Assembly (NCBI GenBank): GCA_002439085.1
Contig: DJSW01000009.1
Span: forward strand, 42,192-106,191
DNA length: 64,000 nucleotides
Direction of reading: 5' to 3'
DNA from: Alphaproteobacteria bacterium UBA6324
Lineage (GTDB): Bacteria > Pseudomonadota > Alphaproteobacteria > CAAGCB01 > CAG-977
Position numbers and translations under genes: made by a program. Below, piece after piece: positions 25,321-34,849 of this stretch (positions are counted from its first letter, which is position 1; every line of letters begins with the position of its first letter). The notes under the pieces were generated by a model, which saw only the letters and a program-made list of their open reading frames with translations, had not been told where the DNA came from and did no database searches.

Positions 25321-26066
25321 TGAAAATCGAATACTACAACGAATATAGCCCGAATCTGGGGCGTCATATGGAATTGAAGGTCTATGGGCACGCGGGGAAA
25401 CCGGTTCTGGTTTTCCCGTCCCAATGCGGCCGGTTCTATGAATACGAAGGATTCGGCATGATCGACGCCGCTTCGGGTTTTATCGAAGCGGGACGCGCCC
25501 AGTTTTTCTGCGTTGACGGGTTGGATTGGGAAACGTTCGTCTGCGCCGGATGGCCGGGCGACCGTCTGTACCGTTTTGAACAGTATTTCAAATACGTTTG
25601 CGAAGAAGTCGTGCCTTGGGCGTTGGATATCAACGCGATGGGCAGCAACTATCGCGCGGGCGGCATGATGACGACGGGATGTTCAATGGGCGCGTTGCAC
25701 GCGGCGAATTTCTTTTTCCGCCGTCCCGATCTGTTTGACGCGATGATCGCGCAAAGCGGGCTGTACAGCTGCCGTTCGTTTTTCCCGAATTGCGACGAAG
25801 CCGGCGTTTATTTCAATTCGCCGATCGAATACCTGCCGAATATGAACGATCAGGGGACGCTGGATCTGTACAAACGTTCCGACATCATCGTTTCCGTCGG
25901 TCAGGGCGCATGGGAAAACGAATGTCTGAGCGACACGCGCGCTTTGGACGGCATCATGCGCGCCAAAGGCATCCCCGCGTGGGTGGATTACTGGGGTTAC
26001 GACGTGCCGCACGATTGGCCGGCGTGGCGCGTCCAGTTGCCGTATTTTCTGGAACACGTTTTGTAA
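25320..26066 (+). CDS. Esterase family (alpha/beta hydrolase, GCSMG nucleophile elbow) protein, translationally coupled to the ATP-grasp gene.
   Basis: Putative-esterase (PF00756-like) motif TTGCSMGALHAANFFF. 1-nt stop/start overlap. Confidence 0.7.
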   Translation: MKIEYYNEYSPNLGRHMELKVYGHAGKPVLVFPSQCGRFYEYEGFGMIDAASGFIEAGRAQFFCVDGLDWETFVCAGWPGDRLYRFEQYFKYVCEEVVPWALDINAMGSNYRAGGMMTTGCSMGALHAANFFFRRPDLFDAMIAQSGLYSCRSFFPNCDEAGVYFNSPIEYLPNMNDQGTLDLYKRSDIIVSVGQGAWENECLSDTRALDGIMRAKGIPAWVDYWGYDVPHDWPAWRVQLPYFLEHVL

Positions 26067-26082
26067 TAAACGGAAAACAAAC

Positions 26083-26116
26083 GAAAACCCCGCCGTCAAA
26101 AGCGGGGTTTTTATAT
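26083..26116 (+). terminator. Rho-independent terminator after the esterase gene.
   Basis: aaaaccccgccgtcaaaagcggggtttttatat. Confidence 0.55.
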
Positions 26117-26189
26117 GGAAAAAAGTTGTTGATTGAATTTTAATATACGATATGCTGTATTGGTTGATAATCCGAACGGGGAGGGAAAA

Positions 26190-28241
26190 ATGACCGGTTT
26201 GAAAGATTTAAAAGAAGGCATCGAAAAGGGTAAAATCGTTTTGCCGAATGTGCAGCGCGGATTCGTCTGGAAACCGTGGCAGATCGAAAACCTGTGGGAT
26301 TCGTTGATGCGCCGTTTTCCGGTCGGGTCGTTCGTCGGCGTTGAAAAAGACGGCAAGACGGAATTGCTGGACGGGCAGCAGCGGGCGACGGCGATCGCTC
26401 TGGCTTTTTTTGAACCGGACGGAACAGAAGACTCGCAGAACGTGCTGCGGTCTTCGACGGATCGGGTGCGACTGTTCATTGATTTGAAAAAGGGAACGGG
26501 GACTGATCGGAAATACATTTTCCGCGTCATTACGAAATCGCATCCGTGGGGATATCAAAAAAGCCGGAACGATCGGACGTTGAGCGCGGAAAACATTCGC
26601 CGCGCGTGCGAGGATTACAAAATGGCAGATAAAAACCCGTATGCGGAACCGTTGGGCAAATTCTGGCCTTATGACGCGTCGTTTCCCGTGCCGTTCGGTT
26701 TTTTCCTGAACGGTGACAATGCGGCAACCGTCCGTTCAAAAATCGAACGGTGGTGCGAACGGCATCATCAAAAGCCTTTTCCGACGGGGCCGGATTATTA
26801 CGGCATAAAAGAATTGCTTGATACCGTGCGAGATGTTTTGGGTAACACTTCTTTGCCGCTGTTGTTGGTGAGCGAACAGGTTTTGGACGCGGAAACCGGA
26901 TTGTCCGCGTCGGACGGCGAAACCGACACCGATGCGGATGACGGGGACGATGAAATCGAAAACCTGTTCATCCGGCTGAACGCGGGCGGGACGCCTTTGC
27001 GCGGCGAGGAATTGAATTATTCGATTTTGAAAACGAACATCGGTATTGATTTGCAAAAAAGGATTGAAAACGCCTGCGCGGGATTTATGCGTCCGGCGCG
27101 TTTCATCACCATCGCCTGCCGTTTGTACCAGAACCGGCCGGAAAAACCGACGGCCGACGCCGTGACGATGCGTATTCAACCCAAGCAGTTTCAAGGGATC
27201 ATTCGCAATGAAAAAGCGGGATTCATCCGATTCGTTGAAAAATTGCTGGATGCGGATTTTTTGGGGCGCGTGAAAACGGTTCTGCGTTACGATCCGGACG
27301 ACAACGCGTTCGGGCTGCCGGATTTCATCGTTTCGGAATTGGCGGACAGGGCGCCGGAAGTCATGTTGATGCTGATGCACCGTTTGCTTTATACGGATGA
27401 TGAAACGAAAATGACGGAGGAAACGCGCCGCAGGATGCTGGGCGTTGTCACGCTGCTGACGTGGTTCGGAAAGGGGCAGCGCGACCATGCGCCGCTGATC
27501 GGCCGGTTGTGGGAACAGGTCAGAAAAACAAAAGAGGCGGACGCTTTTTGGTCGGCCGGTTTGATGCGGACGGCCTGTGAGGAAAGGGAAAACGAAACCC
27601 TTTTTCCGGCGTTTCCGAAATTTAACGAATTGAAAAAAGGCATAAAAGCCCAAAAAAACATCCGCATAGATTCACTGTATCGCTGGAATTTTGAAAAGGT
27701 TCAACCGTTCTTGTCGCGGCTTTTTTATGAAAGAAGCCTGATCCTTTACGCCCAGCGCGACGCGTTGAACCTGTGGTTCAAAGATTGGCGGGATTTTGAT
27801 TTGGAAGACACGCTGTGTCCGTTCGATTGGGATCACATTTCGCCAGAAAATCTGATTTACCGCAAACGCCATATTCACGACGCGTTGAAAAGCTGGTACC
27901 AGACGAACGGCAATTTCCGCGCGTGGCCGTTTACGCTGAACCGGAAAGATCAAGATGTTGTGCCGAGTGAAAAGCTTTTGTGTTCAAAGAATGATTTCAC
28001 GGACATTTTAAAAAGCATCGGCGTGACGGATTATCCGTATAAATCCGACGTGTTGCTTGATTGGTCGAAATGCGCCAAGGCATGGAAAGAAATTGATTTT
28101 AACGACCTGTCGGAAAAAACGGATTCGCAGCACAAAAGAAACAAACAGCTGATCAACGCCATTATCAACCGCAATCTGGAATTGATCCGGACGTGGTATG
28201 ACGAATTGCGTATCAACGATCTTTGCCCGTCAGGCAAATGA
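26190..28241 (+). CDS. GmrSD-like type IV (modification-dependent) restriction endonuclease: an N-terminal DUF262 (ParB-like NTPase) domain fused to a C-terminal DUF1524 (His-Me finger) domain.
   Basis: DUF262 motifs: PNVQRGFVWKPWQIENLWDSL and LLDGQQRATAIALAFF, then an acidic linker DGETDTDADDGDDE, then FIRLNAGGTPL. DUF1524 motifs: FDWDHISPE and NGNFRAWPFTLNRKDQD. GGAGGG SD before ATG 26190. Confidence 0.8.
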   Translation: MTGLKDLKEGIEKGKIVLPNVQRGFVWKPWQIENLWDSLMRRFPVGSFVGVEKDGKTELLDGQQRATAIALAFFEPDGTEDSQNVLRSSTDRVRLFIDLKKGTGTDRKYIFRVITKSHPWGYQKSRNDRTLSAENIRRACEDYKMADKNPYAEPLGKFWPYDASFPVPFGFFLNGDNAATVRSKIERWCERHHQKPFPTGPDYYGIKELLDTVRDVLGNTSLPLLLVSEQVLDAETGLSASDGETDTDADDGDDEIENLFIRLNAGGTPLRGEELNYSILKTNIGIDLQKRIENACAGFMRPARFITIACRLYQNRPEKPTADAVTMRIQPKQFQGIIRNEKAGFIRFVEKLLDADFLGRVKTVLRYDPDDNAFGLPDFIVSELADRAPEVMLMLMHRLLYTDDETKMTEETRRRMLGVVTLLTWFGKGQRDHAPLIGRLWEQVRKTKEADAFWSAGLMRTACEERENETLFPAFPKFNELKKGIKAQKNIRIDSLYRWNFEKVQPFLSRLFYERSLILYAQRDALNLWFKDWRDFDLEDTLCPFDWDHISPENLIYRKRHIHDALKSWYQTNGNFRAWPFTLNRKDQDVVPSEKLLCSKNDFTDILKSIGVTDYPYKSDVLLDWSKCAKAWKEIDFNDLSEKTDSQHKRNKQLINAIINRNLELIRTWYDELRINDLCPSGK

Positions 28242-28244
28242 AAA

Positions 28245-29039
28245 TCAGACCAGCAGGCTGAACAGTTTTGAAGAGGAGCTTTGATTTTTTGCGGAACGCA
28301 GGGTCGCCATGTTCGTGTATCCAGTCGCCAGCAAATCGGCCGCCCCTTGTGCCGCCAAAACGCTGGCACTGGCGGTGACGGAACCTGATTCGGCTTCCGC
28401 TTTGGCCAAAGCGATGTCGCCGTCGGTCATATTCGTGTGGTCGATGGATTGTTCCTGCGTGACGTAATCGTGTTTATAGGTGTCGCCCAGCTGCACCTGC
28501 AAAGCGTACAGCGTGTCCTGATCCACCGCCTTGCCGTCCTTTGTCGTGACGTGGATGTAATAGGTGCCGGCCTTTTGCACTTTGTATTGGCCGCGCATCA
28601 GCTGGTCGAATGCGTCGGTCGCCTTGCCTTTGCCCTCTTCGTTCGTCGCGATCAGCGTTTGGCGGTTGTTGACGTATTGGTACAGTTCGACTTTCAGGCC
28701 TTGGCCTTTGAAACGTTCAATAGCTTTTTCAAAATTGCTGGACGCTTCCTCCAGCGCGTCGGAAGCCGTGGATTCGTCGGCGTCGGCCGTTTCGCTGTTC
28801 GCACTGAGGTTGATGGCGGTCAGACGCAGTTTTCCCCGCGATGTGACAGTGAAAGAAAACCAGTCTTCCTTTTCATTTTCGGACAAGGTCGTGATCATGT
28901 TCAACCGCGAATAATTCAGCCGCGCCTGTCCCATGTCGCGCGCGTTGCGGATCGAATCGGCGTATGTGTCCGTCGTCGTCTTTTCCCACGTTTTCACATT
29001 GGTCGATTTTGTTGTCGCGTCCAGAACCGTCGTAGCCAT
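28245..29039 (-). CDS. Hypothetical protein with PPC (pre-peptidase C-terminal)-like beta-sandwich motifs. No signal peptide.
   Basis: EDWFSFTVTSRGKLRLTAINLS ... AGTYYIHVTTKDGKAVDQDTLYALQV. It sits 89 bp downstream of the cyclase gene on the same strand. Confidence 0.45.
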   Translation of the reverse strand: MATTVLDATTKSTNVKTWEKTTTDTYADSIRNARDMGQARLNYSRLNMITTLSENEKEDWFSFTVTSRGKLRLTAINLSANSETADADESTASDALEEASSNFEKAIERFKGQGLKVELYQYVNNRQTLIATNEEGKGKATDAFDQLMRGQYKVQKAGTYYIHVTTKDGKAVDQDTLYALQVQLGDTYKHDYVTQEQSIDHTNMTDGDIALAKAEAESGSVTASASVLAAQGAADLLATGYTNMATLRSAKNQSSSSKLFSLLV

Positions 29040-29128: not shown

Positions 29129-31093
29129 TTAAAATTCGGGCAAACTTTCCGACAGCTCTTTTTCCTGCGGCGGTTCGGCGGGCTTTTCCGGTTCCTTGGG
29201 CGGCTGTTTTTTGGGTTTTTCCTCTTCCCACACCACTTCGTACAGCGTTTGCGGGGTGTCGATTCCTTTCAGGTTGAATTCGCCTTTCGGAACAAAGATG
29301 TAATTCTTGCCTGCGGCCAGTTCCTTGACGACGGAGGAAACGTAGATTTGGTTTTTGCCGGCTTCGCCGCACACGCGCGACGCCAGCTGGACGGTCAGGC
29401 CGAACAGGTCGTTGTTTTCCACGATCGGTTCGCCGGCGTTCAACCCGATGCGGACTTCCAAAGCGACGGTCGGCGATTCGCGGTTGTACAGACTGACCGC
29501 TTTTTGAATGGCGATCGCCGCGTCGATCGCGTTGGACGCCCACATGAACGACGCCATGATTCCGTCGCCAGTTTGTTTGATCTCTTCGCCGCCGCAAGTG
29601 CTCAACGCCTGACGGACGATCGTGTTGTGCCGGTGGATCAGCTGCTGCGCCATGCGGTCGCCCAGCGTTTGCGTCATATGGGTCGATGACACGATGTCGG
29701 TGAACATGACCGTGCAGATGCCCGACGCGACCGTTTCCTTTTTCGGATTCAGCCAGTTGGCCATTGTTGTTTGGATCAATCCGACCAATTCGGGCGACGA
29801 TTTGTTGTTCAGATAGGTTTCCATGCCCTTGGAACCGTTTTCGATGACGGTCAGGTACTTGGGTTCCATCATGTATTCTTCGATTTTATCGAAAAACAGA
29901 TCGGCCAAAGTCGGGGCGCGCCCCAACAGTTCCAGCAAACCGGCCAGCATCACGCGGTTTTGCTGGGCGGAAAGGGATTTCGACCGGCACAGCCGTTCGC
30001 ACGCGCCGGATAAAAACAGCTCGATTCCGAAACGGGCGTAGGTGTTTAAGAGGGTGTTCTTTTCCTGCAGCACGCGCAAAATGATGGACAGGAACGTCGT
30101 CAGTGTCAGGTAGTCTTTTTCCAATTCCGGCGGGATTTCGGCGTGTCCGGTTTCTTTGGCGGGGGCGGGCGTTGTTTCACCGTTGCCGTTTTCATCCGTT
30201 TCCGCGTTCGCGGTATCGTCGGGCGCATCCGCAGGCGTTTCGGGGGCGGTTTGTTCGGTCTGTTCTTCGCCGGCTTTTTCCTCTTCCCGCTTTTTGCGTT
30301 CCTCGTCGGCGGCCTGTTCCTCCGCCTCTTGCTGTTCGGCCTTTTCCTGCGCGGCCTCTTCGGCCTCTTTCAATCGCTGGGTCAGCGTTTTGCGTCCGCT
30401 CAGCACGTCAAAGGCGTCAAAAACGCGGCGCACCATGCGGGAAACAAGGGAATCGGATTTGGGTTCGGGACGTTCCGAATCGATTTCGTACAACTCGCGT
30501 TTGGAATATTTGGCGTCGTCGTCGCTTTCCTTGGATGTCGGGTACAGAGCGGACGTTTTTGGCGATTCCTCTTCATCCGATCCCAACAGGTTTTCCCATT
30601 TGACCCATTTGATCGCCGTCGGGACGGATATCACCAAAAAGAAGAACGTGAACGTTCCCAAAACGAACTGGCCGGAAATGTCCTGTTGCGAAAAACCGGC
30701 CAATCCCATGACGCGCAAAGTCACCACCGTGATCATGCTGGACAGGATCATGGCAAAGATGATCGACAGAAAGATCATGATGACGCCTTCGGCCAGGCCG
30801 GATTTTTTCCGGTCGTTGCGTTTGACGGTCGTCGGGATCACGCTGTTGGCGTAAGGGGACGATTTCGGCGGTTGCGGTTTCGGTATTTCGCTGAGATAGA
30901 CCATCGCCTCTTGGAACATTTGCGTGTCCAGATCGTAAGTTTCGCGCACGACCTTTGTCGGTTTGCGTTCCGTGTTTTCAATGCTGCGCGCGTATTCGAT
31001 CGCCTTCGACCGCTGTTCGGACGAATAACGCCCCAGCAAATCCCACGCGCTGTTTTGATAAACATAGACTTCGTAATGTATGATCGCGGACAC
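29129..31093 (-). CDS. Membrane-bound class III adenylate/guanylate cyclase. It has an N-terminal TM region and an acidic E/K-rich linker before the C-terminal cyclase homology domain.
   Basis: VMFTDIVSSTHMTQTLGD...GDGIMASF...RIGLNAGEPIV matches the cyclase homology domain. GTG start. Confidence 0.85.
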   Translation of the reverse strand: MSAIIHYEVYVYQNSAWDLLGRYSSEQRSKAIEYARSIENTERKPTKVVRETYDLDTQMFQEAMVYLSEIPKPQPPKSSPYANSVIPTTVKRNDRKKSGLAEGVIMIFLSIIFAMILSSMITVVTLRVMGLAGFSQQDISGQFVLGTFTFFFLVISVPTAIKWVKWENLLGSDEEESPKTSALYPTSKESDDDAKYSKRELYEIDSERPEPKSDSLVSRMVRRVFDAFDVLSGRKTLTQRLKEAEEAAQEKAEQQEAEEQAADEERKKREEEKAGEEQTEQTAPETPADAPDDTANAETDENGNGETTPAPAKETGHAEIPPELEKDYLTLTTFLSIILRVLQEKNTLLNTYARFGIELFLSGACERLCRSKSLSAQQNRVMLAGLLELLGRAPTLADLFFDKIEEYMMEPKYLTVIENGSKGMETYLNNKSSPELVGLIQTTMANWLNPKKETVASGICTVMFTDIVSSTHMTQTLGDRMAQQLIHRHNTIVRQALSTCGGEEIKQTGDGIMASFMWASNAIDAAIAIQKAVSLYNRESPTVALEVRIGLNAGEPIVENNDLFGLTVQLASRVCGEAGKNQIYVSSVVKELAAGKNYIFVPKGEFNLKGIDTPQTLYEVVWEEEKPKKQPPKEPEKPAEPPQEKELSESLPEF

Positions 31094-31473: not shown

Positions 31474-31561
31474 AACTTCAGCTCCAGAATGCAACAAGTG
31501 TTTTTTCTATACTCTAAAAGATTCGGCTTTTCAAGCCTGTTTTCGGCAAAAGTTCAAAAAA

Positions 31562-32611
31562 TCACTTTTCCGTCAGCTTGAATTCGATCCGGCGGTTTTT
31601 GCGGCGCGCCGATTCCGTGTTTTTGCGGTCGATCGGCTGATATTCGCCGAACCCCGCGGCCACCAACCGGCGGGCGGGGACGCCCCGGTCGATCAGGTAT
31701 TGGACGACGGCGATCGCCCGATTCGCGGACAGCTGCCAGTTCGACGAATACAGTTCGTTGCGGATCGGCACGGTGTCGGTGTGGCCGTCCACGCGCAAAA
31801 CCCATTGGATGTTTTTGGGAATTTTGCGTTGCAGTTCCTTGACCGTTTTCGCCAGAACGTTCAGCTGTTTTTTGCCATTTTCCTCCAACGCGGCTGAACC
31901 GCTTTTGAAAAACAGTTCGGATTGGAACACGAAGCGGTCGCCGACAACGGTGATGTCGTCACGATCGGCCAAAACCTTGCGCAGCGTTCCGAAAAATTCG
32001 GAACGGTAGGAGGCCAGCTCGCCCGCTTTGGCGGCCAGCGCGCGATTCAGCTTTTTGCCCAAATCGACGATTTGCGCTTTTTGCGCCTTGTCTTTCTTTT
32101 CCGCCTGATCCAAAACGGCGCGAATCTTGGCCAGCTCGGCCGTCAGCTTTTCCGTCTGCGCGGTCAAAACGGCCAGATGCGCTTTTGCGTCCTGCGATAT
32201 TTTGCGTTCGGATTTCAGGTCTTTTTCCAATTCGGTTTTGCGCAGTTTCAACGCCTTGGCGTCCTGCTCCATCAACGCGATTTGCGCCAGCGCGCGCGTG
32301 TTTTCGTCCTTGACGCCGGCCAGCTCTCCGGCCAGTTTTTCCGTTTCCGCCAGCTGCGCGTTCAAACGGATCGTCAAATCGGCCGTCGATTTGCGTTCGG
32401 CGGACAGCTCGGTCGCCAAATCTTTCAACCGGATGTTCAGCAGATCGATTTCCGTGTTTTTGGTGTCCAGATTCCGCCCCATGAAATAGTGCGCCAAAAC
32501 GAACAGCAGCAGGAAAAACAACACGACGATCAACAGTGTTGACATCGCGTCAACAAAGCTGGGCCAGAAATTGTATCCGCTGGAGTTTCTGAAACGGCGC
32601 ATGGCGGTCAC
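31562..32611 (-). CDS. MotB-like protein. An N-terminal TM helix is followed by a ~200-aa coiled coil and a C-terminal OmpA-like peptidoglycan-binding domain.
   Basis: TM segment LLIVVLFFLLLFVL. Heptad-rich region LKDLATELSAERK...KIRAVLDQAEKKDKAQKAQI. OmpA_C motifs: NWQLSANRAIAVVQYL...NRRIEF. 4-bp overlap with the upstream MotA-like gene. Confidence 0.75.
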   Translation of the reverse strand: MTAMRRFRNSSGYNFWPSFVDAMSTLLIVVLFFLLLFVLAHYFMGRNLDTKNTEIDLLNIRLKDLATELSAERKSTADLTIRLNAQLAETEKLAGELAGVKDENTRALAQIALMEQDAKALKLRKTELEKDLKSERKISQDAKAHLAVLTAQTEKLTAELAKIRAVLDQAEKKDKAQKAQIVDLGKKLNRALAAKAGELASYRSEFFGTLRKVLADRDDITVVGDRFVFQSELFFKSGSAALEENGKKQLNVLAKTVKELQRKIPKNIQWVLRVDGHTDTVPIRNELYSSNWQLSANRAIAVVQYLIDRGVPARRLVAAGFGEYQPIDRKNTESARRKNRRIEFKLTEK

Positions 32612-33594
32612 TTGTCCTGTCCGGAAATCGTGCGCACCAGCAATTTGAACGAATCGCGAATCTCGCGCAACAGGATTTCCTGACGGGCTTCGGAACGTTT
32701 GTCGATCTGGTTGACGTTATGGTCGATGCGGCTGATGATGCGCAGCAGATCCATGTCCGTCTGGACGCGTTCCTGCGCGCCGGATTCGCCCTTTTTCAGC
32801 TGCAGCCGGATGTCCGCCAGACTTTCGACGACCTGTTCCAGCAAAGCGTTGGCGTACGCGCCGTTCGACGTGACGGAATCGTCACCGCTGCCGACGGACG
32901 ACGAATAGCGCGTCAACGACGCCAGATGTTCGTCCAAACCGTTGTAAAAATTGTTTTGCGCGCGGCCGGCCTGCAGATCCAGAAAACCGACGACCAAAGC
33001 CCCCGACAGCCCCAGCAGGGACGACGAAAAGGCCGTTCCCATGCCCGACAGCGGCAGTTCCAGCGAATTTTTGATCGTGTTGAACGCTTCGGTCGCCTCT
33101 TCGCCCGAAACGTTCAGGGATTTGATCACGGTCGCCACGGCGCCGACCGTGTCCATCAACCCCCAAAACGTACCCAGCAATCCCAGAAAAGTGGACAGTC
33201 CGATCAGGTATTTTGAAATGTCTCGACTTTCCTCCAACCGCATTTCGACGGAATCCAAAATGGTGCGGGCGATGGTCGGGGACAGGACGGCGTTGCCTTT
33301 GGCGCGGTTGTTTTTCAACACCAAGGCCAGCGGAGACAGCAGGCGCAGTTTTTGCAGATCCGCGTCGGTCAGCGACAGGGCGGGCGCCTTGATCCACCGG
33401 ATTTCACGGTACAGCGCGAACACGGAATGAAAGTTCATGCCGACGCCGAACAGGAAAACGACGGCGATCAGGCTGTTCAGCGCGGGATTGGTCAAAAAGG
33501 CGTTTCGCAGTGCCGGATACAAAACGGCACACGCGCCCGCGACCAGAATCAGAAACAAAAACATACGGGTCACATAGCGGTTCGGCAGTTCCAT
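32608..33594 (-). CDS. MotA/TolQ/ExbB-family proton-channel protein with a ~110-aa cytoplasmic C-terminal tail.
   Basis: LIGLSTFLGLLGTFWGLMDTV is the MotA_ExbB signature. AAAGGA SD. Confidence 0.75.
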   Translation of the reverse strand: MELPNRYVTRMFLFLILVAGACAVLYPALRNAFLTNPALNSLIAVVFLFGVGMNFHSVFALYREIRWIKAPALSLTDADLQKLRLLSPLALVLKNNRAKGNAVLSPTIARTILDSVEMRLEESRDISKYLIGLSTFLGLLGTFWGLMDTVGAVATVIKSLNVSGEEATEAFNTIKNSLELPLSGMGTAFSSSLLGLSGALVVGFLDLQAGRAQNNFYNGLDEHLASLTRYSSSVGSGDDSVTSNGAYANALLEQVVESLADIRLQLKKGESGAQERVQTDMDLLRIISRIDHNVNQIDKRSEARQEILLREIRDSFKLLVRTISGQDK

Positions 33595-33613
33595 GTTCCA
33601 ATCCTTTTGTTTG

Positions 33614-34849
33614 TTATTTTTCTTTGATCAAAATATCCGTTCTGTCCGGAATTTTCGATCCCGCGCCCTTTTGTCCGAACGAACGGATTTCCATGCGCAG
33701 ACTGTTGATCCCCTGTTGCGCCAGATACGACCGGACGGCCAAAGCGCGGCGCAGGGAATGCTGTCTTTCCCCGCCCGTGCGGACGGGATCGGGCGCGCTG
33801 TAGGAATACAGCAAAACCCGTTTCGACGGATATTTTTTCAACTGCTCCGCCATGGTGTCCAACGCCGTCTGCATTTCATCGTCCAGCCGGGTCGCGCCGG
33901 TTTCAAAAATGAAAATGTGGTAAAGGGCGCGGTTGTGTTTCAGCGCGGCCGCGGTGGCGGAATCCTGCGGGATTTCCTGCGCCAGCCGCGCGGATCGCTC
34001 TTCGGGCGTCAGTTTCGACGAAACGGGGAAAACCGAAAAACGGACGGGCTGTTTGACCGCGGTTTTTCCGGCCGGTGTTTCCGCGCCGCCCGCCGCTCGC
34101 AACAACGTTTTCGGCTGGACGGACAGCGTGTCCGGCGCCGTTTCCATTAACGGCCGCGGCTTTTCGGCGGGTTTCGCCTCCGCCTGTTTCACGGCCGGTT
34201 TTTCCGCGGCGGCGGCCGTTTCTTTTTCCTTTTCCTCGGCCTGCTGTTGTTCTTTCAGCCGTTCCTGTTCCAGAAAATGCTTGGACAGTTTCGGCGGACG
34301 GGCGGCGGTTTCGACCTCTTCCGTTTTATCGCGGCGCGAGCTGTCCTCCGTCGCCAGAATCTTGACTTTCGGCACGGGGTTTGCGCGCGGCTTCAAACGG
34401 TCGTGCTCGTCGCTTTGGGCGGATTCCTTGACGTGGAATTTTTCAACGGGTTTCGCGGCGGCCGTTTTTTTGACGGCCGGTTTCGCCGGTTTTTTAGGGG
34501 CGGACGCTTTTTTCGCGGCGGGCTTCGCGGCCGGTTTCGCAACCGGTTTCGGCTTTGCCGCCGCTTTTTTCTCCGTCGCGTTTTTAGCCGCGGCCGCGGG
34601 CTTTGCGGCCGACTGCTTTTCCTCTTTTTTCGGTTCTTTCTTTTCCGCCTGTTCCGCCGGTTTCGCCGGTTCGGGCGCTTTCAGCGCGACGCCCGCGTCC
34701 TCGATTTTCAACGGGGCGGAAGTCAGGGCATCCTTGGGAATGAAATCCTCGGTCAAAACGTCCAGATCGACCGTGATTTGAGCAAAAGCCGCCGTCGCCG
34801 CCAAACAAGCGGCGGCAAAACAGGCGGCGGCTTTCACTGCGTTTTTCAA
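33614..34849 (-). CDS. Secreted Ala/Lys/Pro-repeat protein with a C-terminal OmpA-like domain.
   Basis: TTG start with AAGGAG SD 7 nt upstream. Signal peptide KNAVKAAACFAAACLAATAAFAQ. Repeats AKPAAKPAAKKASAPKKPAKPAVKK. C-terminal HSLRRALAVRSYL..G fits OmpA_C-like. Confidence 0.6.
   Translation of the reverse strand: MKNAVKAAACFAAACLAATAAFAQITVDLDVLTEDFIPKDALTSAPLKIEDAGVALKAPEPAKPAEQAEKKEPKKEEKQSAAKPAAAAKNATEKKAAAKPKPVAKPAAKPAAKKASAPKKPAKPAVKKTAAAKPVEKFHVKESAQSDEHDRLKPRANPVPKVKILATEDSSRRDKTEEVETAARPPKLSKHFLEQERLKEQQQAEEKEKETAAAAEKPAVKQAEAKPAEKPRPLMETAPDTLSVQPKTLLRAAGGAETPAGKTAVKQPVRFSVFPVSSKLTPEERSARLAQEIPQDSATAAALKHNRALYHIFIFETGATRLDDEMQTALDTMAEQLKKYPSKRVLLYSYSAPDPVRTGGERQHSLRRALAVRSYLAQQGINSLRMEIRSFGQKGAGSKIPDRTDILIKEK

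Follow-up and report, generated by a model that had tools for sequence, protein, structure and literature searches.

Motors of the 5:2 superfamily (MotAB, TolQR, ExbBD, and ZorAB) are known to do only a few jobs: flagellar rotation, Ton-dependent uptake, Tol-Pal envelope maintenance, gliding and type IX secretion, SiiAB-driven type I secretion, and Zorya immunity. Here, we describe a locus in a 64,000-nt stretch of the genome of Alphaproteobacteria bacterium UBA6324 (contig DJSW01000009.1; this whole stretch is called the window below, and positions are counted from its first nucleotide), in which three genes at 31562 to 34849, named P1, A, and B, encode a secreted accessory protein, a channel subunit, and a MotB-like subunit. 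Based on open reading frames (ORFs) and their translations, together with domain scans against Pfam, NCBIfam, and PADLOC, the locus probably encodes a peptidoglycan-anchored, proton-driven motor of this superfamily that forms a separate, vertically inherited alphaproteobacterial family. The locus combines a MotA_ExbB domain and fold in A, a conserved transmembrane Asp in B, and adjacency of the two genes.

Each of the described motors resembles A and B in part. Among the flagellar stators (MotAB, PomAB, and MotPS), MotA has four transmembrane helices with its N-terminus inside, as is also predicted for A, and B has the MotB-signature transmembrane segment (W..F.D....L), a segment at the position of the plug, and a C-terminal domain closest to those of MotB, MotS, and PomB. 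However, A does not have the cytoplasmic torque domain of MotA and matches no MotA model or structure, a coiled coil takes the place of the short flexible linker of MotB, and A and B have no flagellar context and are present in nonflagellated bacteria. In the TolQR-TolA-Pal and ExbBD-TonB systems, the TolQ and ExbB chains are the best fold matches of A and share the motif LGLLGT.WG with it. The motor, the long periplasmic helical spacer, and the OmpA-like wall binder of Tol-Pal are all conceptually present, the last two fused in B. Nevertheless, B ends in an OmpA-like domain and not in a TolR/ExbD domain, and the A-B locus has neither a transducer with a TolA/TonB-type membrane anchor nor TolB; no TonB-like gene is found among its neighbors in the window.

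Zorya offers another comparison. A TolQ/ExbB-like core followed by a C-terminal alpha-helical tail is common to ZorA and A, and a transmembrane Asp with a MotB-like peptidoglycan-binding domain is common to ZorB and B. The tail of the type I Escherichia coli ZorA (EcZorA) is a pentameric cytoplasmic coiled coil of ~507 amino acids (aa) (residues 223 to 729) and ~70 nm (PMC11946911), compared to ~120 aa in A. In ZorB, the wall-binding domain is joined to the transmembrane helix without a linker, whereas ~170 aa of coiled coil lie between them in B. ZorA has three transmembrane helices and A a predicted four, and the A-B locus has none of ZorC/D/E/F/G, its context being one of housekeeping synteny and not a defense island. 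SiiA is a MotB-like protein with a short periplasmic helical dimerization segment ahead of its peptidoglycan-binding domain, and SiiAB is encoded with a type I secretion system and its giant adhesin. This helix is short compared to the long coil of B, no type I secretion genes occur at the A-B locus, and no SiiA chain is present among the best 60 of 73 PDB sequence matches for the C-terminal domain of B. SiiAB of Salmonella SPI-4 is listed among the 5:2 motors in a survey of force transducers (PMC12204202).

A preliminary description of the window, made from the sequence alone, had reported three codirectional, tightly packed genes with a 19-bp gap and a 4-bp overlap, and the three minus-strand ORFs and both junctions were recovered exactly there (Table 1). 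P1 initiates at TTG, with a Shine-Dalgarno GGAG 7 nt 5' of it, and only 22 bp separate its start from the stop of suhB, so that the tight codirectional packing reaches upstream to suhB. The 19 bp lie between the P1 stop and the ATG start of A, which has AAGGA ahead of it, and the 4-bp overlap is a GTGA in which the GTG start of B overlaps the TGA stop of A. Public gene models of identical B proteins use an ATG 9 nt downstream (32602; 346 aa), and the A/B junction may thus be a 5-nt gap instead. P1, A, and B are real, tightly coupled genes, and A and B are translationally coupled. The cluster is flanked 5' by epmA, efp, and suhB and 3' by rpmE and then a membrane class III cyclase gene; within the window, no flagellar, Ton, Tol, or Zorya effector genes adjoin it, which for the first three agrees with the preliminary description. 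The authentic Tol-Pal operon does lie elsewhere in the window, as had been claimed, as a complete ybgC-tolQ-tolR-tolA-tolB-pal-pal2-cpoB operon at 52542 to 58569 (tolQ, tolR, tolB, pal, and cpoB within 52991 to 58569; tolQ scores 286 bits). No paralogue of A was found in the 64-kb window.

A matches Pfam MotA_ExbB (PF01618) weakly but above threshold (27.2 bits; cut-off, 22.9) and has a heptad-periodic tail, so its first description as a MotA/ExbB/TolQ-family channel with a cytoplasmic tail holds. It matches no TolQ, ExbB, or MotA equivalog in NCBIfam (for the MotA models, none at E ≤ 0.01). Its best sequence matches are the PADLOC ZorA profiles (ZorA1, 7.8e-14; ZorA3, 3.9e-13), the ZorA1 match covering only profile positions 104 to 271 of 683, and it reaches 25.2 bits with NCBIfam ZorA_4 (NF033917) against a cut-off of 500. 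A search of the PDB sequences with the A profile gave only coiled-coil noise (E > 0.04), and a fold search was therefore needed to tie A to any solved motor. The AlphaFold2 monomer model of A, built from 47 sequences (mean predicted local distance difference test score [pLDDT], 71.5), is all-helical (residues 5 to 24, 37 to 69, 106 to 159, 167 to 233, and 243 to 325), and Foldseek matched it to TolQ, ExbB, and ZorA chains of the PDB with a probability of 1.0, with no flagellar MotA chain in the top 50. In an hhalign comparison with the window's own TolQ, only 24 columns align, at the transmembrane motif LGLLGT.WG, and the channel core is the only alignable part of A. A is thus a member of the TolQ/ExbB/ZorA fold that has diverged deeply.

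Judged by its hydrophobicity and by the positive-inside rule, A would have four transmembrane helices with the N-terminus in the cytoplasm, a topology that would also make the tail cytoplasmic. Across the 47 homologues, the FLGLLGTFWGL motif of the third helix (TM3), including T142, is invariant, the motif of the fourth (TM4) is invariant at several positions and nearly so elsewhere, and P181 is likewise strictly invariant. The cytoplasmic loop of ~65 aa aligns with no MotA model. The tail shows hydrophobic periodicity (z = 4.3 to 6.4), with an invariant motif at its base (Y247-A250-LLE[Q]) and conserved residues at its tip (R313, L319, and T322).

B belongs to a catalogued family: NCBIfam NF006543 (PRK09039.1-2, "peptidoglycan-binding protein") matches it with 388.4 bits (cut-off, 305), residues 4 to 348 aligning to profile positions 5 to 349 of 350. 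Pfam OmpA is found at residues 234 to 340 (74.4 bits), and the remaining Pfam matches on B homologues are below cut-off and are spurious coiled-coil hits. B has no TolR or ExbD match in NCBIfam, scores 106 bits with MotD (cut-off, 283), and matches PADLOC ZorB3 at 1.3e-26. For its C-terminal domain, the closest structures by Foldseek are MotS, MotB, and PomB (E, ~1e-9), and a profile search of PDB sequences gives MotB (6ysf, 3e-24), PomB (~1e-18), and ZorB (5.5e-6). In 23 B homologues, W16, P17, F19, V20, D21, L26, and L27 are invariant, and D21 corresponds to the Asp that is essential in MotB, TolR, ExbD, and ZorB. The membrane-proximal segment that follows sits where MotB has its plug and, judged by position, may act as one. 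By these membership tests, A and B are not flagellar MotAB, TolQR, ExbBD, or Zorya, and B falls in the PRK09039 family; the initial claim that the system is distinct from the first three is upheld.

Between the membrane helix and the wall-binding domain, B carries a continuous heptad coiled coil of ~170 aa. The long heptad spacer had been recognized before, with a length of ~200 aa that proved too high. Residues 46 to 216 show a 3.5-residue hydrophobic periodicity (z = 8) that none of 2,000 shuffles reached, and a single heptad register is kept between about residues 41 and 170, with no such signal in the OmpA domain. Among close homologues, lengths (346, 353, 339, 332, and 360 aa) vary in steps of 7 or 14 aa, and 7 of the 17 short distinct gaps in the B alignment have one of these two sizes. 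The AlphaFold2 model of B (pLDDT, 76.7) has a helix at residues 16 to 134, a low-confidence break at 135 to 139, a second helix at 140 to 214, and an OmpA-like domain at 220 to 348. Across 73 loci, B ranges from 329 to 799 aa (median, 383) and A from 310 to 431 aa; because the ends of B are constant, the coil spans ~120 to ~590 aa among relatives. Three loci (L059, L045, and L057) have B homologues of ~640 to 800 aa with coiled-coil spacers of ~430 to 590 aa, NCBIfam NF006542 is a subfamily model of 627 positions, and in one uncultured alphaproteobacterial metagenome-assembled genome (MAG) a second, longer B-like ORF lies just 3' of the A-B pair (L019, 9858 to 11741, plus strand). The lengths of A and B correlate over the 73 loci (Spearman rho = 0.45, p = 8e-5, without phylogenetic correction), a relation that we did not use as evidence; the A tail and the B stalk, whose host proteins thus covary in length, sit in different compartments.

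The family is large and its gene order is stable. At E ≤ 1e-5, A has matches to no fewer than 7,979 database proteins, and an exhaustive hidden Markov model search with A retrieved 929 clusters (50% identity) at E ≤ 1e-30 and 2,292 at E ≤ 1e-10. Hosts include Rhodospirillales, Acetobacteraceae, Hyphomicrobiales, Kordiimonadales, and marine MAGs; the nearest genome to the window is that of a human-gut alphaproteobacterial MAG (L001; A, 72% identity). Gene neighborhoods were counted in 80 genome loci (L001 to L080). B lies within 900 bp 3' of A in 75 of 76 testable loci, suhB and efp are upstream in 43 and 40 of 58 loci, respectively, and rpmE is downstream in 26 of 58; A and B are also annotated between efp-suhB and rpmE in the Sinorhizobium meliloti chromosome. 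Few hosts lie outside the Alphaproteobacteria, namely, gammaproteobacteria (Dokdonella and Chiayiivirga) and betaproteobacteria (Azoarcus and Denitromonas), and in these loci only the A-B pair is shared, with no other conserved neighbor as a functional clue. The efp-suhB-rpmE synteny across orders indicates that A and B form a vertically inherited housekeeping module and not a defense island. The three-gene unit of the preliminary description has to be narrowed: the A-B pair is conserved, and only about half of the related loci have P1.

The family is widespread and already catalogued (B as PRK09039), and it is mechanistically uncharacterized. A literature search under several family names retrieved only work on Komagataeibacter hansenii and nothing mechanistic besides, and, by keyword search, recent surveys of stator relatives (PMC12505986) and force transducers (PMC12204202) mention neither Alphaproteobacteria nor a coiled coil. 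No orthology to a mechanistically characterized system, named at the outset as a finding that would tell against a distinct machine, came to light. The function had also been called undefined, which is nearly true, apart from the cataloguing of B and the manipulation of orthologues in K. hansenii as MotAB. This alphaproteobacterium has no flagella, yet it carries one adjacent pair of genes, "motA" (348 aa) and "motB" (321 aa) (PMC6570709). The published primers encode MTRPTTY at the start of MotA, with MARRSRR and EFRLTDR-stop as the first and last residues of MotB, and the termini of our family are M.RP.R[FY] for A and M.RR.R and RRIEFKLTER for B. The agreement of these termini is our ground for equating the two pairs, and the primer-encoded ends and the protein sizes indicate that the K. 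hansenii proteins belong to the A/B family. Overexpression yielded elongated cells and, with either gene, ~3-fold greater spreading on 0.3% agar and a looser cellulose network (PMC6570709), disruption mutants were viable with denser cellulose (PMC7347698), and green fluorescent protein (GFP) fusions were polar. In these studies (Jacek et al.; PMC6570709, PMC6315621, and review PMC7347698), which share with our locus the adjacent genes, the proteins are handled as motility proteins, without architecture or mechanism.

P1 is a genuine but lineage-restricted accessory of Rhodospirillales-like lineages, outside the universal core. A gene for an OmpA-like protein with the C-terminal signature RR.SL.RALAVR..L...G..STRIDVRALG...DRVD lies 5' of A in 41 of 79 loci. 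P1 is missing where suhB abuts A directly and in the gamma- and betaproteobacterial loci; those that keep A and B without it are Kordiimonas, Roseibium, Devosia, Defluviicoccus, S. meliloti, and all gamma- and betaproteobacteria. P1 has no PADLOC match. Mature P1, probably periplasmic, begins with a beta-strand-like N-terminal box, which a long flexible AKP linker joins to a degenerate OmpA-like domain. The predicted signal peptide junction recurs in the L001 orthologue (APAYA/QITLNLDVL), and a VTVDLSVLD-type motif stands just past the signal peptide in distant orthologues (L015, L018, L031, L036, L037, L043, L044, L046, L054, L074, and L079), followed by a Pro/Ala-rich linker. The AKP repeats and the OmpA-like end noted at first are both present: the protein contains 8 AKP and 8 KPA tripeptides and 13 KP dipeptides, Ala, Lys, Pro, and Glu make up 20%, 16%, 11%, and 11% of mature P1, respectively, a weak 12-nt tandem repeat occurs within the linker (34512 to 34551), and Pfam OmpA scores 44.3 bits. 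Of the two canonical residues of OmpA-like domains that bind the diaminopimelate moiety of peptidoglycan, P1 retains the Arg (SLRRALAV), and the Asp of GHTD is replaced (YSYSAPD; AYA[AG] in orthologues); a nine-residue helix segment is absent in the alignment with the window's Pal and B. Whether this domain binds the wall is uncertain.

How would such a motor work? By analogy with its relatives, five A subunits would surround a parallel B dimer, prolonged as a coiled-coil stalk whose C-terminal domains would fix the dimer to the wall, and proton passage via Asp21 would turn the A pentamer and its tail bundle around B. This architecture would be the inverse of Zorya, with a short cytoplasmic tail and a long periplasmic stalk. 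Since the conserved noncatalytic surfaces are the base and tip of the A tail, and the stalk varies freely, an output on the cytoplasmic or inner-membrane side is favored; we hold it tentatively, as one that would serve homeostasis of the envelope or of cell length and not motility or immunity. A periplasmic output of A and B is doubtful. It is conceivable, although we would not put it more strongly, that A and B make up a functionally distinct and undescribed class of 5:2 motor, an "inverse Zorya" serving as an Alphaproteobacteria-wide housekeeping module that couples the proton motive force, together with the condition of the wall or periplasm, to cell elongation or envelope homeostasis, accompanied in some lineages by P1 as a TonB-like accessory exported by a signal peptide.

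Several points weigh against this picture. The A5B2 stoichiometry, the rotation, and the ion flow are carried over by homology, and we infer the wall binding and the physiological role of A and B. The model of A is only moderately confident (pLDDT, 71.5), with TM-scores to known A subunits of 0.4 to 0.54, and the break at residues 135 to 139 in the monomer model of B may leave room for a fold-back hairpin. Fully extended, the coils of the family would measure ~18 to 87 nm (0.15 nm per residue), and the distance from inner membrane to wall in E. coli is ~9 nm (PMC11946911); hence, the B stalk is not a simple perpendicular link or ruler between the two. No cytoplasmic partner of the A tail is known. 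The effects seen in K. hansenii, on the length of cells, on the spreading of colonies, and on the texture of cellulose, are indirect, and since a C-terminal MotB-GFP would be periplasmic, the polar foci may be aggregates or artifacts.

The main rival is a Tol-Pal-like trans-envelope force transducer with periplasmic output, in which P1 would couple to the rotating A pentamer or to the B stalk: its N-terminal box would dock on the motor, and the AKP linker would pull on the wall or outer membrane through the OmpA-like domain, like the Pro/Lys/Ala-rich spacers of TolA and TonB. We consider it rather unlikely. The conservation of the box, the Pro/Ala/Lys-rich linker, and the C-terminal motif in a gene found directly 5' of A in 41 of 79 loci speaks for it, as do the tight packing of all three genes, the fold of A, which is nearest TolQ and ExbB, and the cell elongation on overexpression, also known for E. 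coli tolQ/tolR overexpression (cited in PMC6570709). However, A and B are kept without P1 in the lineages named above, P1 has a predicted cleavable signal peptide and not the membrane anchor of TolA or TonB, its OmpA-like domain has lost the canonical Asp, and the same genome already has a complete Tol-Pal system. The remaining readings are less likely still. A static tether between inner membrane and wall, or a periplasmic scaffold, that has lost motor activity would fit a coiled coil of very variable length, which recalls structural tethers, and the absence of any known partner or effector; the strict invariance of D21 of B, T142 and P181 of A, and the G/T/S-rich TM3 and TM4 motifs over 23 to 47 diverse sequences argues for a working ion pathway, making loss of motor function improbable. 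Equally poor odds attach to a surface-motility motor for gliding or spreading, a nonflagellar stator like AglRQS of Myxococcus, despite the greater spreading and looser cellulose of K. hansenii overexpressers and the denser cellulose of the disruptants (PMC6570709 and PMC7347698). Longer cells and altered cellulose confound the colony-spreading result, gliding-apparatus genes adjoin the pair in none of the 80 loci, the syntenic housekeeping block extends over very diverse Alphaproteobacteria, including the lineage of the human-gut MAG, and anchoring of B to the wall is what a static stator typically shows; nothing ties A and B to AglRQS or gliding, and this suggestion of the preliminary description is dropped.

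The same holds for its suggestion of a Zorya module, that is, an anti-phage sensor whose motor would be activated when the envelope is perturbed and whose tail would recruit effectors. This is very unlikely, even though the ZorA profiles are the best for A, ZorB3 matches B, ZorA chains are among the Foldseek matches, and a GmrSD restriction gene lies 3.3 kb away. A falls far below the ZorA_4 cut-off, its tail is about 120 aa compared to about 500 aa, the 170-aa coil of B has no equivalent in ZorB, and the wall-binding domain of B is far nearer to MotB (3e-24) than to ZorB (5.5e-6). The flanking genes are suhB and rpmE and not ZorC/D/E/F/G, and the conserved synteny across orders is unlike that of a mobile defense island. 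Hardly credible is a flagellar or spare stator displaced from the flagellar genes, a reading that draws on the frequent database name "flagellar motor protein MotA" for A homologues and on the likeness of the C-terminal domain of B to MotB, MotS, and PomB. It runs counter to the failure of A to match MotA by NCBIfam model, by structure in the top 50, or in its cytoplasmic loop, to the subthreshold MotD score of B, to the absence of adjacent flagellar genes, and to the occurrence of the family in flagellum-less Komagataeibacter (PMC6570709).

If the motor reading is true, a further near-ubiquitous, syntenic 5:2 family would point to unrecognized envelope housekeeping dependent on the proton motive force in Alphaproteobacteria, including rhizobia, acetic acid bacteria, magnetotactic and marine groups, and gut lineages. 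Two features offer experiments a concrete handle: an architecture that mirrors that of Zorya and a stalk whose length varies freely. In addition, the routine misannotation of A homologues as "flagellar motor protein MotA" in many database records skews the inference of motility from genomes, and manipulation of the A/B family already alters the texture of bacterial cellulose in Komagataeibacter.

Table 1. Features of the P1-A-B locus (positions in the window)
Feature	Position	Strand	Basis
P1, secreted accessory protein, 411 aa	33614-34849	-	ORF; Pfam OmpA, 44.3 bits; composition; orthologues 5' of A in 41/79 loci
P1 predicted signal peptide, aa 1-24, MKNAVKAAACFAAACLAATAAFA then Q	34778-34849	-	read from sequence; Ala-rich, ends AFA/Q
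P1 N-terminal box ITVDLDVLTED, predicted mature N-terminus	34745-34777	-	motif recurrence
P1 low-complexity Ala/Lys/Pro/Glu-rich linker, ~aa 45-300, AKP/KPA repeats	33950-34717	-	composition
P1 OmpA-like domain, aa 315-394	33668-33907	-	Pfam PF00691, 44.3 bits (cut-off, 27.2); alignment with window Pal and B
A, TolQ/ExbB/ZorA-like channel subunit, 328 aa	32608-33594	-	Pfam MotA_ExbB; PADLOC ZorA1, 7.8e-14; AlphaFold2 pLDDT, 71.5; Foldseek
N-terminal pair of helices in A, aa 5-24 and 37-58, both predicted to span the membrane	33421-33582	-	AlphaFold2 helices
A channel core, aa 128-207: TM3 FLGLLGTFWGL (T142), ~35-aa periplasmic loop (predicted), TM4 GTAFSSSLLGL...GF.DLQ	32974-33213	-	invariant columns, 47 sequences
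A predicted cytoplasmic tail, aa 208-328 (~120 aa), heptad-periodic helix	32611-32973	-	periodicity; AlphaFold2 helix 243-325; conservation
B, MotB-like subunit; start GTG 32611 (349 aa) or ATG 32602 (346 aa)	31562-32611	-	NCBIfam NF006543, 388.4 bits
B transmembrane helix, aa 16-40, WPSFVDAMSTLLIVVLFFLLLFVLA, invariant Asp21 (codon 32549-32551)	32492-32566	-	conservation; translation
B membrane-proximal segment, aa 41-56, HYFMGRNLDTKNTEID	32444-32491	-	F42, F43, G45, L48 conserved
B periplasmic heptad coiled coil, aa 46-216	31964-32476	-	periodicity; AlphaFold2 helices 16-134 and 140-214; 7/14-aa indels
B MotB-type peptidoglycan-binding (OmpA-like) domain, aa 220-348, GHTD and SNW.LS..RA intact	31568-31954	-	Pfam; Foldseek; PDB profile

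An Rfam scan of the whole window gave no match, and a scan for promoters and terminators was at chance level, the sole signal being a weak hairpin at 31525 to 31537, between B and rpmE. The suhB-like inositol monophosphatase gene upstream of P1 (34872 to 35930, minus strand; 352 aa) has a basic extension of ~85 aa at its N-terminus, and homology with other SuhB proteins sets in at about residues 60 to 90; the extension reflects either a misextended start or a clade-specific addition. On the other side, the cyclase gene (29129 to 31093, minus strand) encodes a membrane protein of 654 aa that has a low-complexity region rich in Glu, Lys, and Ala and, at its C-terminus, a class III adenylate/guanylate cyclase domain. 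A homologue is found 3' of rpmE in several Rhodospirillales loci (e.g., L001, L002, L007, L018, L020, L031, L037, and L044), and this gene therefore travels with the cluster.

Farther 3', the GmrSD gene (26133 to 28241, plus strand), 3.3 kb from the cluster, encodes a 702-aa protein with an N-terminal GmrSD_N (DUF262) domain (84 bits) and is likely a type IV restriction gene. The region from 26001 to 28000 has an unusual GC skew (0.148) and a lowered GC fraction (0.508). Between this gene and the cyclase gene, a 264-aa protein (28245 to 29039, minus strand) has only a subthreshold match to the pre-peptidase C-terminal (PPC) domain (22.1 bits; cut-off, 25.9) and no NCBIfam match. In the Tol-Pal region, a gene for a DUF6782 putative metallopeptidase (51369 to 52541, plus strand; 140 bits) lies directly 5' of ybgC-tolQ. 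The gene at the tolA position (54231 to 55187, plus strand; 318 aa) has no Pfam or NCBIfam match at the thresholds used and would be a very divergent TolA. Two tandem genes for Pal-like lipoproteins stand 3' of tolB (56606 to 57073 and 57150 to 57578, both plus strand); the first passes the Pal equivalog cut-off (144.5 bits; cut-off, 125), and the second scores 101.7 bits, below it.

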